Source: a virus. Taken from it: DNA of 64,000 bases. Made by a program: the position numbers and the translations under genes. The notes beneath the pieces are model-generated. The model had not been told where the DNA came from. It saw only the letters and a list, made by a program, of their open reading frames with translations, and did no database searches. Positions 41,935 to 63,900 of the stretch are shown piece after piece (position 1 is the stretch's first letter; each line of letters starts with the position of its first letter). The DNA is taken from the IMG/VR virus record IMGVR_UViG_3300045919_000631, positions 45,281-109,280 of that record; one strand, given 5' to 3'.

Positions 41935-43263
41935 TCAACCTTTGCTAAGCATTGTAAGAGTATTACTGATTGAATTGAGATCTCCTGTGTTATTTAAACT
42001 ATCATCCTCAAGCATTGTGAGTGTATGGTAATCCATTTTAAATGTCGATTTGCCGGCGTTAGTTCCAAATCTATTCTTCATCATACCTAAATTAATTGTG
42101 CCAAGCTCTCTTTCTTCGTCATTTTGAAAGATGCTCACGAGTACATCAGCCGTGGCTGCTAAACCCATGCTCTCACTTAATGTCACAAGGCCTGGGTTAT
42201 CAATGTCATATCCAGATCGATTTAACTGAGTTGCTGATATAAATGGACATTTAAAGGTATATGTCATTGCGCGAATTTGTTCTGTTGTGCCTTTTACCCT
42301 CTCATAACTATTATTGCCTTCTGTCGCTTTTACGAGATTAACATAATCAACAACTACTGCATCAATTTTTATGCCTTTAGAAATTATGCCTTTTATGAAG
42401 CCCTGTAACTGATGAACTGTAATTGTATTTGGAGGAAACTCCTTAATAATAATTTTACCAGACTTACCATCCTTATGAATTTCATCAATTTGTTGCTTAA
42501 GTGTCTGATTTTCACTTCGTAAATCTTTGATCGGAATATGAGTTATATTTGATGCAAGTCTCTTCGCATACATTAGTTCACTCATTTCGAGAGTAATAAG
42601 CAAAACTGTCTTATTTTGCTTTGCTATGTTTGTGGCAATATTGCCTAATATAATACTCTTACCGATATTTGTCTCACCCGCAAACACATAAATTGCTCGA
42701 CCATTTGTTAAGAACCCACCACCAAGTTTCTCATCAAGCCATTTCCAGCCAGTGGATATTGTTGGCTGATCCGTGCAGATATCGTCAATTAAGGTATCAA
42801 TATCTTTATAAAGGTCAATCCCGTCATCAGTTTTGAGACTGATATTACAGCTTTGTTCAAATTTATCTAAGATAAAACTTGTATCAACTTTACCGGCTCC
42901 AATATCTTCAGCAACTTCAAGCATCGTATTATAGATAGCTCGTTCTTTAATGTATCTCTCTGTATTTTCAACTAACTCATCGTTATTAAAATTTTTATCG
43001 ATGTTTGTAAATGTGCGAAGAACAACTTTAAATGACTCCCTGGTTTCTTCAGAATTTATATAACTCTTTAATTCAGTAGCTGTAGGAACGGATCCACGCT
43101 TTACGTAGAACTCCTTAATAATATTAAAGATAGCCTTAATATTTTTGTCTTTAAAATATGAAGGTTTTAAATGCTCTAAAATTGATGATAGATATTTTTC
43201 ATCAGTTAGTGCTTTATACACTATAATTGACTCATATTCATCCAAATTCAGTTTTAACCCCAT
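41935..43263 (-). CDS. gp41: replicative DnaB-like helicase, gp41
   Basis: AGETNIGKS, ITLEMSE, IIKEFP, VVVDYVNL, SATQLNRSG, SESMGLAATAD, MKNRFG. Confidence 0.96.
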   Translation of the reverse strand: MGLKLNLDEYESIIVYKALTDEKYLSSILEHLKPSYFKDKNIKAIFNIIKEFYVKRGSVPTATELKSYINSEETRESFKVVLRTFTNIDKNFNNDELVENTERYIKERAIYNTMLEVAEDIGAGKVDTSFILDKFEQSCNISLKTDDGIDLYKDIDTLIDDICTDQPTISTGWKWLDEKLGGGFLTNGRAIYVFAGETNIGKSIILGNIATNIAKQNKTVLLITLEMSELMYAKRLASNITHIPIKDLRSENQTLKQQIDEIHKDGKSGKIIIKEFPPNTITVHQLQGFIKGIISKGIKIDAVVVDYVNLVKATEGNNSYERVKGTTEQIRAMTYTFKCPFISATQLNRSGYDIDNPGLVTLSESMGLAATADVLVSIFQNDEERELGTINLGMMKNRFGTNAGKSTFKMDYHTLTMLEDDSLNNTGDLNSISNTLTMLSKG

Positions 43264-43268
43264 ATCAA

Positions 43269-43296
43269 ATTGTAAAGTCTAATTTTAGACTGTCAA
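43269..43296 (-). promoter_or_regulatory. sigma70-like promoter of gp41
   Basis: TTGACA-N16-TACAAT-N5-ATG. Confidence 0.75.
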
Positions 43297-43974
43297 CGTC
43301 TTACCAATATATTTTGAATATTTTTCCAAAAAGTATTTTTCGCCGGCGATCCATTCAGGTGTAAACTCTCTCAGGCCAGGTGATTGATGAATTACAGGAA
43401 CATCACCGACCACAATCGATACTTTATTAAGTGAGCAATCTAGCGAGAAATTTAGGTCATAGAAATGGAACTTAGCAGGGTTTGACTCATCAAATTTTAC
43501 TGAAACTGGCAATTTTTCAATATTGATTGCAATAAAAAGACCATCAATCATAATTGCTTGATGCGGTAAAGGACCAAATGATGTATAATAATAATCATTA
43601 TACATTCCATGAGCAACACAACCTTTTTGATCTTTTCTTTCTGAGATTAAGTGCCAAAGAACTGGAGATTTGATAGTAATTGCTGATGCACCCGCAAGGC
43701 CTAAAATAGTATATTGAGACAAATATTTTTGCACTCGTTCACGTAAATCGTAACAATTTATAATAACATCATCGTGAACTAAAATAAGAGCATCAATTTG
43801 CTCATCTCGAGCTTTTTTGATCGCTTTATTATATACAACAGCTAGAGATTCTTTATTTTCTCCGTAAAAATCTACATCACGTATAAAGTTATCAGATAGA
43901 TACGGAGACTGACGCATAAAAATTGTGTCAGATAAACTCTTTTTCTGTGAAGCAATTGCAAATCTAATTCTCAT
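43285..43974 (-). CDS. GT-A fold glycosyltransferase (family 2-like)
   Basis: SLAVVYNKA..LILVHDDV..LGLAG..IDGLFIA..FDE..FHFYDLNFS..VIHQSPG. Confidence 0.85.
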   Translation of the reverse strand: MRIRFAIASQKKSLSDTIFMRQSPYLSDNFIRDVDFYGENKESLAVVYNKAIKKARDEQIDALILVHDDVIINCYDLRERVQKYLSQYTILGLAGASAITIKSPVLWHLISERKDQKGCVAHGMYNDYYYTSFGPLPHQAIMIDGLFIAINIEKLPVSVKFDESNPAKFHFYDLNFSLDCSLNKVSIVVGDVPVIHQSPGLREFTPEWIAGEKYFLEKYSKYIGKTLTV

Positions 43975-44285
43975 ATAAATTTTTTTCTATCATCCATTTC
44001 AGGCTTGTTTTGTTCAGTCCACATTGCGCACATTATATTCCATATTGCAGCTGCGGCATGGTCTTCATTTTGATCACCTTCAAACCATGAAGTTAAATGG
44101 CGCTGAGCACTGTCATAAAAAACTGAAAGCGGCATTCCATGCTTCCAATTATTTTCTCCGTATTTTCCGGCGCCTCCAACATAATGTTGCGCGACTCTTT
44201 TTAATTCTTTGTGAGGAACTAAACTTAGGCGAGGTTTACCTTTTGCGGTATCGCGTTGAGCTCCTGTTTCAAACTGCCTGTTCAT
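43971..44285 (-). CDS. dATP/dGTP diphosphohydrolase N-terminal-domain (DUF5664-like) protein
   Basis: FETGAQRD..GKPRLSLVP..GAGKYGENNWKHG..DSAQRH..EDHAAAAIWN. Confidence 0.85.
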   Translation of the reverse strand: MNRQFETGAQRDTAKGKPRLSLVPHKELKRVAQHYVGGAGKYGENNWKHGMPLSVFYDSAQRHLTSWFEGDQNEDHAAAAIWNIMCAMWTEQNKPEMDDRKKFI

Positions 44286-44763
44286 CTAAAATATCTTTAA
44301 TAGTTTTCTCAAAAACTGCATCTTTTGTTCCAAACTCATTATCAATAATAGTTGGCTCCATTTTTAAAAGCTTTTTAAAGAAACCAACACCAAGGCTATT
44401 AATTTCAGAGTTAACGTAATATTTTGAACTTACGTCTGAATAATCATTTAAGACTTTTAATATTAAACCTGATGCAATCCCTTTTCCGCTATAGCCCTTG
44501 TCAGTAACTATATAATATGTTTTAATGACGTCTGGACCTTTATGATTAAAAGAATATGCATGTAAGCCTATGATTTGATCACCATCTTTTGCTAATACAA
44601 TAGGAAATAAATCCCACCAAGATACCATATTTGGGCAACGTGACCAAATCAATCCAAACGTGTTCATTACAAATGTATCTGTGTTATCATATACAAATCT
44701 CACCATTTCAAGTTTTTCTTGTTCGGTGGGGCCAACAACATACCTAACATTAAAATCGCTCAT
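44269..44763 (-). CDS. GNAT-family acyltransferase
   Basis: IIG..YIVTDKGYSGKGIASGLI (motif A), NSLGVGFFKK (motif B). Confidence 0.8.
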   Translation of the reverse strand: MSDFNVRYVVGPTEQEKLEMVRFVYDNTDTFVMNTFGLIWSRCPNMVSWWDLFPIVLAKDGDQIIGLHAYSFNHKGPDVIKTYYIVTDKGYSGKGIASGLILKVLNDYSDVSSKYYVNSEINSLGVGFFKKLLKMEPTIIDNEFGTKDAVFEKTIKDILDEQAV

Positions 44764-45404
44764 ATCACAAAAAATGGTGAGTTCACTTTAAATTTGCCAA
44801 CTTCTTTTGTACCTTTTTCATCGAATTTATATATTAAGCCTTCTTTAATATCTTCAAATCCTTTTCCTTTAACTGACGAGAAGCTATTATTATCATAAAA
44901 TAATGTGCTCCCTTGACGCGCTAAAAATATATCAGATGTTTTGCTATTAAAAATCCATAAACCAAATGTACCTTCAAGCAGCTCTAACACTGTTGCAACA
45001 TTTTTAATAATACTTCCGCGGTGTTTTTGAAAGTGATTTAATAGTGCCGGAATAATGCTGCTGTCAACCACACCTTCATGCTCTGGTAAGTATTTCTTTT
45101 TGAGTGTTTCAAAATTTGTTAGAACACCATTGTGTGCTACAACCCAGTCACCGGCTTCAAAAGGATGTGAGTTATGTTCTCTATATACTCTTTCACTTGA
45201 AGTAGGTGCTTGATTATGACCTAAGTAAATAAATCCGTCTGGAAGATTTCGTTCATTCCAATCAAAATTGCCCGAGGTCTTATGATAATCATAAGATTCA
45301 CCATTTGAATATAAAATTCCTGAGGCGTAATTACCTCTACTTTGATTTACTTTATCAAGTATTTCAAACTTGGCTACATGAAAGCTTCCCCATATTCCGC
45401 ACAT
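44760..45404 (-). CDS. stand-alone class II (Ntn) glutamine amidotransferase domain
   Basis: N-terminal MCGI, SRG, GHNQAPT, HPF, AHNGVLTN, VDS, EGTFG. Confidence 0.9.
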   Translation of the reverse strand: MCGIWGSFHVAKFEILDKVNQSRGNYASGILYSNGESYDYHKTSGNFDWNERNLPDGFIYLGHNQAPTSSERVYREHNSHPFEAGDWVVAHNGVLTNFETLKKKYLPEHEGVVDSSIIPALLNHFQKHRGSIIKNVATVLELLEGTFGLWIFNSKTSDIFLARQGSTLFYDNNSFSSVKGKGFEDIKEGLIYKFDEKGTKEVGKFKVNSPFFVI

Positions 45405-45409
45405 TCCAT

Positions 45410-45436
45410 ATTATAAATGGTTTCCTGGAAAATCAA
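45410..45436 (-). promoter_or_regulatory. sigma70-like promoter of the GATase-GNAT-diphosphohydrolase-GT operon
   Basis: TTGATT-N15-TATAAT-N5-ATG. Confidence 0.6.
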
Positions 45437-45437
45437 G

Positions 45438-45845
45438 TTAAGGAGCGATATAAGTCACTGTCAATCCATTATAAGCAATAACTGTTGAAACAGCAATATT
45501 TGCTGTAGTTAAACTGTTAGCATTAGCGTATATATTGCATGTTGTACCTGATGTTAGCCAAAAAGTAACAAAATTAGCAGCTGCTGTACCGTTCCAAACT
45601 TGGACAGATGAAGGTATAAAAGTTGGGTTACCTGCAGATAGTGTTATTGCTCTTGTATTACCAGAACCACCACCAACACTATATGTCAAAATTGCAGTCT
45701 TAAAAAAAGATTGTGTCGCTGAAAGGCCATCATCATAGCCAAAAACAGCAGATAACTGCGGAAAATTTGTGTCTGCGCTAAGAGAGACAAATTTCATGTA
45801 CTCGACTGTGGCTATATTATCGCGGACGTTGTTAATTACTGGCAT
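45438..45845 (-). CDS. small late, probably virion, protein rich in LSA motifs
   Basis: TAAATA 7 nt before the ATG; A/T/S-rich; four LSA in 135 aa. Confidence 0.6.
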   Translation of the reverse strand: MPVINNVRDNIATVEYMKFVSLSADTNFPQLSAVFGYDDGLSATQSFFKTAILTYSVGGGSGNTRAITLSAGNPTFIPSSVQVWNGTAAANFVTFWLTSGTTCNIYANANSLTTANIAVSTVIAYNGLTVTYIAP

Positions 45846-45911
45846 ACTAAATTATTTAGTCTACGACTGTGCAATATTAAAATATTGCGTAACCATTAAA
45901 TAAATAATCAT

Positions 45912-47048
45912 ATGAATAATTTCTATAGTTGCAGCTGGGTTCAAAATACCAAAAACTTACCTAACTCTGCTGAAATGCTAGAAGAAAGCATTGCATCTGT
46001 ATTAAAAGATACAATGAAGAAAATTCAGGCAGCTAAATCAGGTGTTCCATACCGTGATGCACGACTATTCTTTTATCAATTTTTACAAGATAAGTATAAC
46101 GAAAAAATTCCTCAAGAATATAAAGACTTAGGACGCAAATTAGCAGGTAAAGAAGTGAACGCTCTTATGGGGGCTATGATGCTTGATGAAACATTGCCAA
46201 AGAATTTTATTGAAAAGATTGGCGACGAATTTAAAAAATATTCCGATGAAGAAGTGCCCGGCACGGATTATGATAGATTAAAAGCTTTTCTTAATAAAGA
46301 GGTTGGTGGGCGTGAATATCGAGGCGTTGCTCCTGGAGGTGAAAAACGCATGATGAAAGTTAATAATGAATTTGTACCTTATAAATCACCTGATGAAATT
46401 AAGTCTGCAATTACCCACACCTATGCAGAAAAAGATCTCAAAAAGGGATCGACGGGATATGAAACTTTAACACTCAATCTTGACCCAACGACGAAGTTTT
46501 CTTTTGAATCGGAGTCGCCTATGGGTACTCCAATTTATGTTGCATCAAAAAATGGTCTCAAGTTTAGAGTTACTCTAAAAGATGACCACGGTAAAGATAT
46601 TGAACTCAAAAATATTGGACCTGATGCAATTTCAAGTGTTGTCGTAACAAAACCAACAGAAAGTGAGACAGTTACTCTTCCAACACCAAATGAATATGAC
46701 GCTGAAGCACCAAAAATTGGTCGCGAAAAGTCTGTTGCTGATTTTCCAAATGGAGAACATGAAGATTGGAGCAAAGGTCCATTAGATCCTGAAGATTCTG
46801 CATATGGTCGTGAAGAAGACGCATCAGAATTTGCTAATAAAACAGATATGACAACCACTCAACACACTATGAGCGCAAGCCCAATGAACATTCAATCACT
46901 TCCTCATATTGAGATAGTATCTATTAAACCTCATAGAGAGTCTGTAAGACTCTCTCCTCAAGCAGTAAACAAACTAATGCGTGAGCAAATTCGTGCTAAG
47001 CAGCAGCACGTTTATGGCACAGAGCGTAAATACGGTCCAGGTCGCTAA
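45912..47048 (+). CDS. late hypothetical protein (possible internal head protein)
   Basis: TAAATA at 45901; 378 aa, charged. Confidence 0.6.
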   Translation: MNNFYSCSWVQNTKNLPNSAEMLEESIASVLKDTMKKIQAAKSGVPYRDARLFFYQFLQDKYNEKIPQEYKDLGRKLAGKEVNALMGAMMLDETLPKNFIEKIGDEFKKYSDEEVPGTDYDRLKAFLNKEVGGREYRGVAPGGEKRMMKVNNEFVPYKSPDEIKSAITHTYAEKDLKKGSTGYETLTLNLDPTTKFSFESESPMGTPIYVASKNGLKFRVTLKDDHGKDIELKNIGPDAISSVVVTKPTESETVTLPTPNEYDAEAPKIGREKSVADFPNGEHEDWSKGPLDPEDSAYGREEDASEFANKTDMTTTQHTMSASPMNIQSLPHIEIVSIKPHRESVRLSPQAVNKLMREQIRAKQQHVYGTERKYGPGR

Positions 47049-47827
47049 GGTGCAATTTCTTTGCACTTATTTTTCTTATAGACCTTATCTATCTCTTTTT
47101 GTTGCAAATACTTGATCGGATCTTTGTATTTTGCATCAATAAAGCCTTTTAATCGTAGAGCACTCGATGGCGTCTCAGCATCTGCTAGTCCATCATCTCT
47201 TTGTGAATAGCAAGTCCATGTATTTGCAAAGTTCACTCCCATTTCAACACCAATCTTAACAATATCTGCTTTACTTTTGTCTAGAAGAGGAGCTTCAATT
47301 GAAATCTTATGTTGCCTATTAAGACCAACAACAACATTCATTGAATTTACAAAGTTTGTATCTCCATCCCAGTAGCCAGCCAACGAGTCTGCTTGAGCAG
47401 CACCGTACCAAACTTTATCAATTCCATTTGCTTCAGCATATGAACATGCAATTGATAAAAACATCATATTTCTATATGGAACATATGACTTTGGCTGTGC
47501 TTCACCGGCTATATCTTTAATATTTGGTGTTGCAATATCGTTATTTGTCAGTGACGACACAGGTGCTATGTCCTTAATGTAAGAAACATCAATAACTTTG
47601 CGGTATGTCATCACATTTGAATATAATCCTCGTAGCTCTTCTAGTTGCTGTTTTACACATTCAAGTTCTCTTTTGTGGCGCTGACCATAATCAAAAGAAA
47701 GGGTATAAATTTCTTTATACCCATTGCGAATTGCTAAGTGTAGCAATACTGAAGAATCCATTCCTCCACTAAATGCTAATACCAATTTCTTAGACATTCC
47801 CAATTTTACAATAGTTCCTATACTCAT
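47045..47827 (-). CDS. queC: QueC-like PP-loop ATP pyrophosphatase lacking three zinc ligands
   Basis: FSGGMDS, FDYGQRH..E, SYVPYRN..FLS, APL..SKADIV, TWTCY; CGxCxxC replaced by DAETPSS. Confidence 0.88.
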   Translation of the reverse strand: MSIGTIVKLGMSKKLVLAFSGGMDSSVLLHLAIRNGYKEIYTLSFDYGQRHKRELECVKQQLEELRGLYSNVMTYRKVIDVSYIKDIAPVSSLTNNDIATPNIKDIAGEAQPKSYVPYRNMMFLSIACSYAEANGIDKVWYGAAQADSLAGYWDGDTNFVNSMNVVVGLNRQHKISIEAPLLDKSKADIVKIGVEMGVNFANTWTCYSQRDDGLADAETPSSALRLKGFIDAKYKDPIKYLQQKEIDKVYKKNKCKEIAP

Positions 47828-48933
47828 ACTGCATCATCTTCAACCTCATCTGGAACTTCAGCTGCACCTCCTGTAGATGCCATTCCATATTTCCACTCTG
47901 TCTTAATGCGTTCCTCAATTCCTGGTACAATAAAATTGTCCCAAAGCTCAATATCATTTTTCCAGCGACCATATTGACCAATTTTATCTCCATTTGGCTT
48001 TGTGTATGTGCTTCCGCTTTGGTTGATGACACCAAGCCCAACTGCTAAATCAAGTAAACCATAGTATTTAGCAAGACCACTTTCAAAGCTTAGATACATC
48101 TCTCCTTCAAGATATTGTTTTGCAAAACGGTTCTTTGCTGTTAATGCTCTAAGAATTACTCCAGGATAGCTTTTTTGCCCCACAGCTAATTTTGATTCAA
48201 TATGCTTATCTTCTTTCATTGGCTTGCGAGCCAATTGAACTGTTACTGACGGAAGATAGACTGCAGCACGACCGCCTGGCATTTCTTTTACAAGAGAAGG
48301 AAACATTGCAGATGGATCATCAAAGATATGATTTGTTGCAAGAATCGTTGTCTTGGTTACAGCAGCTAATTGCGTTGCTGTTCTCAGTAATGATTTAACT
48401 GCCTTTGCTCTACTTCCCATATCAGCAGAAACATTACTCTTTTCCATTCTGTTGATTTGAATCTCGCTTTCCATATTACCAAGCGAATCAATTGCTACTA
48501 CAAACTTATCAGTAATACCTTTTTCTTGAGCTTTCTTCAAGAAAGACCAAAGAGTGTTTCTACATTCTTCAAGGCTAAATGATGGAACATATTTAACCAG
48601 ACTTGAATCTAAACCTAGAGCCTCTGCTCCTTGAGCATCAATTGCGTTTTCACTATCAAAAACGACAATCGTTTTACCTGCTTTCTGTGCATTAGCAAGA
48701 ATTTTTTGAATGATATATGACTTACCGGTCATAGATGGGCCTGCAAATAAAGTTAATCTATTTTTTGGAATCCCGCCAAAAAGAGAACCGGAAATAATGC
48801 CGTTAAGCACCATTGATCCGGTGTCCCACCAACCCTCTACATTTGAAAGTGCTCCATTTTTCAGAAATGAAGCATATGGATTTAACTTATCAATTTCACC
48901 TAAAATTTCATCGAGATCAGCGTCTTTGGCCAT
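47824..48933 (-). CDS. uvsX: RecA-like recombinase UvsX
   Basis: DTGS..LNGIISGS..GGIP, AGPSMTGKS, FDSENA, IDSLGN, ADMG.RAK, TNH, KNRF. Confidence 0.95.
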   Translation of the reverse strand: MAKDADLDEILGEIDKLNPYASFLKNGALSNVEGWWDTGSMVLNGIISGSLFGGIPKNRLTLFAGPSMTGKSYIIQKILANAQKAGKTIVVFDSENAIDAQGAEALGLDSSLVKYVPSFSLEECRNTLWSFLKKAQEKGITDKFVVAIDSLGNMESEIQINRMEKSNVSADMGSRAKAVKSLLRTATQLAAVTKTTILATNHIFDDPSAMFPSLVKEMPGGRAAVYLPSVTVQLARKPMKEDKHIESKLAVGQKSYPGVILRALTAKNRFAKQYLEGEMYLSFESGLAKYYGLLDLAVGLGVINQSGSTYTKPNGDKIGQYGRWKNDIELWDNFIVPGIEERIKTEWKYGMASTGGAAEVPDEVEDDAV

Positions 48934-63690: not shown

Positions 63691-63900
63691 ATGAGTAATA
63701 TTACAGAAAACACAACACAGTTAACGACACTCTTTGCTGATTTCAGCGAAAACATTCAAAAGTTCACCGAAAAGGATAATGCATCAGCAGCTTTTCGTGC
63801 CCGCAAAGCTCTTCTAGAAATTGGAAAGCTTACTCGTGAGGTTCGTAAGCAAATTCAAGAGCGAAAGAAAGCTCTTAAAGCAGCTCCTGCAACAGCCTAA
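63691..63900 (+). CDS. histone H1-like Hc1-family protein
   Basis: KFTEKDNASAAFRARKALLEIGKLTREVRK resembles the Hc1 core K.NKAAA.R.R...K....RK. Confidence 0.75.
   Translation: MSNITENTTQLTTLFADFSENIQKFTEKDNASAAFRARKALLEIGKLTREVRKQIQERKKALKAAPATA

Follow-up and report, generated by a model that had tools for sequence, protein, structure and literature searches.

A QueC, glutaminase and acyltransferase locus between uvsX and gp41 as the probable tailoring arm of a dispersed DpdA3-type system for 7-deazaguanine modification of DNA in uncultured marine T4-like phages

Gene organization of the uvsX-gp41 interval

The window considered here, a 64,000-nucleotide stretch of viral DNA, is the right-hand 64 kb of the 109-kb IMG/VR record IMGVR_UViG_3300045919_000631 (CheckV completeness 52%), which derives from an abundant clade of uncultured, marine, T4-like phages. 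Between its genes for UvsX and a gp41-like helicase the window encodes a QueC-family enzyme together with a stand-alone glutaminase, an acyltransferase, a DUF5664 protein and a glycosyltransferase (GT). We propose that this stretch probably supplies the QueC/glutaminase step and the tailoring arm of a DpdA3-type 7-deazaguanine DNA-modification system whose genes are dispersed over the phage genome. Throughout, G000 denotes the 109-kb record, and other G-numbers and L-numbers denote relatives' genomes and related loci, respectively. The interval contains the following features:

41935-43263, minus strand: gp41-like helicase
43285-43974, minus strand: GT-A glycosyltransferase, 229 aa (PF13712, Glyco_tranf_2_5, 42.1 bits)
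43971-44285, minus strand: stand-alone DUF5664 protein, 104 aa (PF18909, 83.4 bits; phrog_801)
44269-44763, minus strand: GNAT-fold acyltransferase, 164 aa (PF00583, Acetyltransf_1, 25.2 bits against a cut-off of 20.7)
44760-45404, minus strand: stand-alone Ntn-GATase (class II glutamine amidotransferase, GAT), 214 aa, starting MCGIWG (GATase_6, 39.5 bits, plus GATase_7)
45438-45845, minus strand: orf135, a small S/T/A/G-rich protein of 135 aa directly upstream of GAT
45912-47048, plus strand: charged open reading frame (ORF) of 378 aa between QueC and orf135
47045-47827, minus strand: QueC-family PP-loop enzyme, 260 aa (PF06508, 184.9 bits; TIGR00364, 159.9 bits against a cut-off of 150.3)
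47824-48933, minus strand: UvsX

Transcription of the minus strand would run in the order UvsX, QueC, orf135, GAT, GNAT, DUF5664, GT-A and gp41-type helicase. From the coordinates, neighbouring genes overlap by 4 nt (GT/DUF5664), 17 nt (DUF5664/GNAT), 4 nt (GNAT/GAT) and 4 nt (QueC/uvsX). The first-pass annotation of this DNA had described four overlapping genes (GAT, GNAT, DUF5664 and GT) and a QueC gene coupled to uvsX, and the genes, their positions and their overlaps are as it described them.

Conservation of the locus among related phages

A comparison at the DNA level with cultured phages returned no matches, and the window UvsX is only ~31% identical to that of cyanomyophages. Orthologues of the QueC-like protein (53-70% identity) abound in marine metagenomes. 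Such a protein is encoded on 208 IMG/VR stretches, and marine metagenomes including Tara hold 4532 database clusters of QueC orthologues and 1122 of GT orthologues. Synteny was counted over 59 complete related loci spanning QueC to gp41, the window's own subclade being defined by a UvsX at least 70% identical. The order uvsX-QueC-(opposite-strand ORF)-GAT-GT-gp41 was found to be essentially invariant across these loci, with GAT present in all 59 and GT in 57, and with GAT and GT overlapping by 4 nt in 42. GNAT and DUF5664 were found in 8 and 6 of the 59, respectively, all within the window's own subclade.

Canonical deazaguanine genes in relatives

FolE, QueD, QueE and DpdA had been noted as missing from the 64-kb window, and none of them is found in the whole 109-kb record either. 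Of the five larger relatives, by contrast, three have FolE and all have QueD, and a QueE-like radical-SAM/Fer4_12 gene stands beside FolE/QueD. Bimodular QueF and a kinase-like gene occur in each of the 5 relatives with a completeness of 55% or more. Co-occurrence of QueC with upstream FolE/QueD/QueE and downstream QueF was seen among relatives G001-G005 and G019. In G003, a complete and terminally repeated genome, the alignment to the record is confined to 65-173 kb, whereas the deazaguanine genes lie at 23-49 kb. In G019, a 35-kb contig of the window's subclade and the closest relative, the gene order is QueE, QueD, a 490-aa ORF, FolE, a 136-aa ORF and a flanking ORF. The flanking ORF shares 70.6% identity with the final ORF of the window (63691-63900), and the FolE/QueD/QueE cluster would therefore begin ~0.4 kb past the end of the record. 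We accordingly attribute the missing canonical genes to truncation of the contig, which is ~52% complete. The missing half is covered by G033 and G034 without overlap with G000, such that a DpdA3-bearing contig could not be linked to the window's subclade. Also in G019, a Zn-protease-like ORF precedes FolE, and the 490-aa ORF falls into no family.

A DpdA3 operon resembling that of phage immuto

Searches for DpdA1/bacterial TGT (PF01702), DpdA2 (the protein and phrog_10773) and DpdA4 (PF20314) gave no credible match in the record or in its relatives. Genuine DpdA2 and DpdA3 proteins likewise escape the Pfam TGT model, so its silence is uninformative. The sole query to find the gene was CGPG_00065 of Cellulophaga phage phiST, named DpdA3 by Hutinet et al. 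2023, which retrieved a homologue of 260-280 aa in all four near-complete relatives searched (G001-G004; G005 lay outside the search). The relatives' protein is 49.6% identical (E 4e-67) to the 'DNA guanine transglycosylase' of Flavobacterium phage immuto and ~47% identical to that of CP220, and by synteny its locus falls in the missing half of the record.

In immuto the operon reads DpdA3-DpdN-'thymidylate kinase'-QueF, and all guanine (100%) in the DNA is replaced by 7-(formylamino)methyl-7-deazaguanine, or fdPreQ1 (PMC10516641). The corresponding operon of G003, next to gp23, reads DpdA3-GNAT-AAA_28 kinase-like-QueF, and G002 carries QueF-AAA_28-Formyl_trans_N with DpdA3 ~7 kb away. The relatives thus share the immuto operon, with identities to the immuto proteins of ~50% for DpdA3, ~49% for QueF and ~42% for DpdN, and they encode FolE, QueD and QueE elsewhere in the genome. 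Because the relatives' DpdA3-(DpdN/GNAT)-kinase-QueF operon matches that of immuto, the clade owns a known kind of system. The gene set is almost certainly not a new pathway, and what is new is probably the acylated base predicted from the GNAT. Unlike immuto, the window has a GNAT in the position held by DpdN in sister phages, keeps its tailoring genes in a second locus adjoining QueC between uvsX and gp41, and adds an Ntn glutaminase, a DUF5664 protein and a GT-A enzyme, immuto having no homologue of the glutaminase or the GT.

The AAA_28/NadR-kinase-like gene (~186 aa, e.g. L111:4439-4999 in G003) adjoins QueF in all of the examined operons that extend to this position. Its immuto counterpart is annotated 'thymidylate kinase', and in the literature examined no deazaguanine-pathway role has been assigned to it. 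In a distant phage (L133:9537-16105) a single operon reads QueD-DpdA3-DpdN-kinase-QueF-QueC-QueE-phosphoribosyltransferase (PRTase)-FolE-dCTP-deaminase-like and contains neither glutaminase nor GT. Between QueF-kinase-DpdN and DpdA3 of G002 (L121, 180-189 kb) we found homologues of the curli-secretion proteins CsgF and CsgG, a FecR-domain protein and a CHASE2-adenylate/guanylate cyclase. Since curli genes are a hallmark of pelagimyophages (PMC7029224), the clade may infect SAR11-like hosts.

QueC and its probable stand-alone glutaminase partner

The window QueC carries the SGGMDS PP-loop ATP-binding motif at residues 20-25 (alignment A1) and passes the curated equivalog cut-off of TIGR00364. 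Compared with Bacillus subtilis QueC (3BL5), the four-Cys Zn site is incomplete: the first Cys (TCY) is kept, and the others are D, T and S clade-wide. The clade consensus is LADAxTPSSxLR where the QueC proteins of KVP40-like phages and pf16 have C..C..C. We considered whether the missing Zn cysteines point to new QueC chemistry and rejected this as a strong argument, as a similarly Cys-less QueC stands between QueF and QueE in the compact L133 cluster, which has no glutaminase. Judged by its motifs and family scores, the window protein is a Cys-less QueC-family variant that most likely functions as QueC does. A further feature acquired by the clade's QueC is a conserved C-terminal tail that contains one Cys (YKxNxCK).

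GAT has its nucleophile Cys directly after the initiator Met (MCGIWG), an HNG at residues 91-93 for the Asn-Gly oxyanion pair and, for the Asp that binds the amino group of glutamine, a VDSS that aligns to the TDTE of GlmS. At the equivalent of Arg73 both GAT and the ValKK3 homologue have Gln (NQAPT in GAT). It matches the GlmS glutaminase domain 1xff (E 1.2e-6) and phrog_12378, the family of QueC-adjacent Ntn proteins of ValKK3 and pf16 (E 8.8e-10), and is 26% identical to ValKK3 ORF135 by BLASTP (E 3e-9). In the cultured phages ValKK3, 1.081.O and pf16, QueC is followed by an Ntn protein of ~200 aa that begins MCG, inside clusters of FolE, QueD, QueE, QueF and DpdA2. The KVP40-like Vibrio phages (nt-1, ValKK3 and 1.081.O) and Pseudomonas phage pf16 therefore resemble the window in having QueC plus a stand-alone Ntn partner, and the pf16 cluster adds a nucleotide pyrophosphohydrolase. 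They differ in using DpdA2, in low-level modification, in a QueC with Zn cysteines and in having no GT or GNAT. Their pair is also adjacent, whereas in the window a conserved opposite-strand gene separates QueC from GAT.

Fusions of Gat and QueC exist as well (PMC6884629). Those of phage 9g and Crenarchaeota (archaeosine/dG+ synthase) likewise combine a class II glutaminase with QueC chemistry, although as one polypeptide and with G+ as the product, whereas here the relatives' QueF implies conversion of preQ0 to preQ1. In the window, QueC and GAT are encoded separately, with 1.6 kb between them, and GAT has no match at E <= 0.001 to phrog_10428, the PHROG of the Gat-QueC fusions. Given the adjacent pair in two unrelated cultured lineages, the clade-wide co-occurrence and the existence of Gat-QueC fusions, a glutamine-dependent QueC is the best reading: GAT would most likely be the glutaminase partner of QueC, the pair making preQ0 from glutamine. 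A split Ntn-GATase/QueC amidotransferase, as the first-pass annotation had envisaged, is thus plausible, the same pair being adjacent in KVP40-like Vibrio phages and pf16. Despite its presence in cultured phages, we found no discussion of a QueC-adjacent stand-alone glutaminase in the deazaguanine literature examined.

A GNAT alternates with DpdN at two loci

For motif A (R/Q-x-x-G-x-G/A) the family consensus of the window GNAT is R-G-K-G-I-A, with invariant G95 and A97, and the window sequence reads S-G-K-G-I-A. Among loci of the window's subclade, the gene that follows GAT and precedes DUF5664/GT is a GNAT in 8 (besides the window: L013, L015-L017, L034, L064, L065 and L070) and a DpdN-type formyltransferase in 3. 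In these three (L063, L068 and L069) the slot holds a 174-aa Formyl_trans_N protein that is 42% identical (E 2e-42) to immuto DpdN (YP_010114479). The slot after DpdA3 in other subclades shows the same alternation, with a GNAT in L122-124, DpdN in L126-128, L130, L132 and L133, and neither in L125. In G033, which spans the whole DpdA3-to-QueD half, no acyltransferase was found. The window protein itself is a GNAT and not a Formyl_trans_N protein, and so is not a DpdN.

At two loci of one pathway, then, a single position is filled by either of two unrelated acyl-transfer folds, which is a good comparative argument that the GNAT takes over from DpdN and transfers another acyl group. By this comparison of gene slots it would probably N-acylate the aminomethyl group of preQ1 or dPreQ1 in DpdN's place, the acyl group being most simply acetyl, and the predicted product would be an acyl-dPreQ1. 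No description of acetylated preQ1 in DNA was found in the literature searched. Tailoring of a phage DNA base by a GNAT fold has a precedent in Mom of phage Mu, a GNAT-related enzyme that acylates a DNA base, although the target base and chemistry differ from those predicted here.

The DUF5664 protein as a candidate dNTP hydrolase

The small protein encoded between GNAT and GT scores well above the PF18909 cut-off (83.4 against 27 bits), and a 66% identical homologue lies inside a DpdA3 operon (L132: DpdA3-DpdN-x-DUF5664-kinase-QueF). The stand-alone DUF5664 protein of Arthrobacter phage Wayne, which has a Z genome, hydrolyses dATP, dGTP and dUTP to monophosphates (PMC12884076). The two share the PF18909 domain, a small stand-alone form and a phage that replaces a purine, and they differ in that the replacement is of A by Z in Wayne and would be of G by a deazaguanine here. 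By analogy, the window protein is probably a dNTP (dGTP/dATP) diphosphohydrolase. Its AlphaFold2 (AF2) model (pLDDT 77) retrieved only generic helical bundles with Foldseek and VIA-align, including the MazG-like 2yxh, 2p06 and 7ody (E > 2, Z 5.7), and the DUF5664 family hidden Markov model did not match the MazG-like proteins of phiST or pf16. The proposed place of acyltransferase and diphosphohydrolase in a base-modification pathway, whose end product is probably an undescribed acylated base, is supported by the slot alternation with DpdN and by DUF5664 in a DpdA3 operon. The amidated or acetamidino-sugar product suggested in the first-pass annotation finds no support.

The co-inherited glycosyltransferase

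The GT has an invariant H67-D68-D69, and its AF2 model (pLDDT 94.6) matches majastridin-UDP (2qgi; Foldseek E 1e-11, TM 0.67, probability 1.0), STIV A197 and many GT-A enzymes, so that a GT-A fold can be predicted with confidence. A tblastn search of cultured phages with the GT returned no matches. A role in T4-type hydroxymethyl-pyrimidine glucosylation was rejected because no ThyA-family hydroxymethylase (PF00303) was found in G000-G005, including the complete G003. Glycosylation of the base by this enzyme is pure conjecture. A doubly tailored guanine replacement, in which GNAT acylation (acetyl-dPreQ1, predicted nucleoside [M+H]+ ~338) would be combined with GT action on the deazaguanine, in DNA or as a precursor, is a long shot; if true, it would be the first glycosylated 7-deazaguanine in DNA. 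For comparison, dPreQ1 has an [M+H]+ of 296.1 and fdPreQ1 one of 324.1 (PMC10516641).

Proposed pathway

Taking these data together, we suggest that FolE, QueD and QueE would convert GTP to 7-carboxy-7-deazaguanine, which QueC, fed with ammonia by the Ntn glutaminase, would turn into preQ0. Bimodular QueF would then reduce preQ0 to preQ1, and DpdA3 would insert the base into DNA in place of guanine. The GNAT would acylate, and probably acetylate, the 7-aminomethyl nitrogen, to which DpdN adds a formyl group in sister phages and in immuto. The DUF5664 protein may trim the dGTP/dATP pool, and the GT-A enzyme, co-inherited and apparently translationally coupled with the glutaminase, is left without an assigned acceptor.

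Several observations weigh against this pathway. TGT, FolE, QueD, QueE, QueF and DpdA3 have no match in the 109-kb record, and the presence of the last five in this genome is predicted from synteny alone. Immuto, CP220 and phiST have neither GAT nor GT, both of which must therefore be dispensable for making fdPreQ1 or dADG. With three of the four Zn ligands gone, the chemistry of QueC could differ. Similarity between the window GNAT and the DpdA3-adjacent GNAT of G003 is marginal (BLASTP E 0.009; hhalign probability 32%), and orthology of the two was set aside as weakly founded; DpdN could also sit at the subclade's own DpdA3 locus, which was not recovered, leaving the GNAT another role. A dGTP hydrolase fits poorly with a purely post-replicative base exchange. 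Finally, T4-like genomes pack unrelated genes with ATGA overlaps, which makes coupling weak evidence for the GT.

Some of these points favour the alternative that survives best, to which we give limited credence: the same deazaguanine system would be present, with GNAT, DUF5664 and GT as passengers whose GNAT and GT targets might be the host envelope, virion proteins or small molecules, and the base would be either plain dPreQ1 or, if the missing half encodes a DpdN, fdPreQ1. The restricted occurrence of GNAT and DUF5664 (8 and 6 of 59 loci) speaks for such passengers, as do the unclear orthology of the two GNATs, the lack of the GT in cultured deazaguanine phages and the attribution of pelagimyophage glycosyltransferases to host O-chain modification (PMC7029224). 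They are harder to reconcile with the swap of GNAT and DpdN in the exact slot at two loci, with the movement of DUF5664 between the GAT operon and the DpdA3 operon, and with G033, whose lack of an acyltransferase fits one acyltransferase per genome at either locus.

We are more doubtful that the pathway is partly pre-replicative, with the PRTase and the AAA_28 kinase producing a deazaguanine (d)NTP, DUF5664 removing dGTP, a polymerase incorporating the analogue, and DpdA3 having a secondary role. The PRTase gene does occur in the immuto and L133 clusters (G003 has a weaker homologue), the kinase-like gene is the constant neighbour of QueF, DUF5664 enzymes hydrolyse dGTP and dATP, and replacement reaches 100% in DpdA3 phages (PMC10516641). 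Against this stands the argument of Hutinet et al. 2023 that all known deazaguanine DNA modifications are post-replicative, since every such phage has DpdA; moreover, the kinase and PRTase roles are read from sequence, and DUF5664 is present in a minority of the clade only.

That the genes serve as auxiliary metabolic genes boosting queuosine-tRNA of the host, with no DNA modification, is very improbable. Such a role was suggested for phages that carry preQ0 genes and lack DpdA (PMC6884629), whereas all four near-complete relatives searched encode a DpdA3 homologue and DpdN-type tailoring enzymes are known only from DNA modification. Scarcely credible is the independent pathway of the first-pass annotation, which would dispense with the canonical enzymes and use a split amidotransferase to produce either a new base or an amidated or acetamidino sugar, since the absence of the canonical genes from both window and record reflects a ~52% complete contig that by synteny ends ~0.4 kb before FolE, the relatives carry FolE, QueD, QueE, QueF and DpdA3, a full set that accounts for queC and gat, and QueC passes its equivalog cut-off.

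If the DpdA3-type pathway proposed above is correct, a very abundant group of ocean T4-like phages probably carries a preQ1-type base in place of guanine in its DNA. Such a replacement, if true, would affect the evasion of restriction and CRISPR as well as the sequencing and quantification of this DNA. The GNAT/DpdN swap leads us to predict acyl-dPreQ1 as the ninth 7-deazaguanine derivative to occur naturally in DNA and points to a candidate substrate for the GNAT, and a glutaminase that supplies ammonia would suit nitrogen-poor seawater. The conserved GT is an unexplained component of the operon that merits biochemical attention.

Promoter-like sequences and neighbouring ORFs

The operon had also been placed under one sigma70-like promoter. 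The sequence before GAT, TTGATT-N15-TATAAT (45436-45410), has a spacer of 15 nt and a -10 element that ends 5 nt ahead of the ATG, and the 23 promoter-like matches in the region are no more than chance would give (23.4 expected), so the single promoter is not upheld. Neither is the idea that orf135 and the opposite-strand ORF form a two-gene late insert: orf135 shares the operon strand and lies 33 nt upstream of GAT, and the opposite-strand gene is an old feature of the locus, as 58 of 60 relatives have an opposite-strand ORF of 259-652 aa in the corresponding position, between QueC and GAT. The sole part shared by these counterparts (e.g. L063:5999-7693) is an N-terminal block, and homologues at 27-48% identity are confined to the nearest relatives. 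The ORF at 45912-47048 has no Pfam, PHROG or NCBIfam match and is an acidic, probably disordered protein that evolves fast though its position is conserved, and it probably stands outside the pathway.

No homologue of orf135 was found in 80 related loci. In a sister subclade (L007:12189-12641) its position upstream of GAT-GT is taken by a 150-aa HHH_3 (helix-hairpin-helix) protein (E 1.4e-11), and a protein of this kind at the head of the GAT-GT operon hints that the operon products act on DNA.

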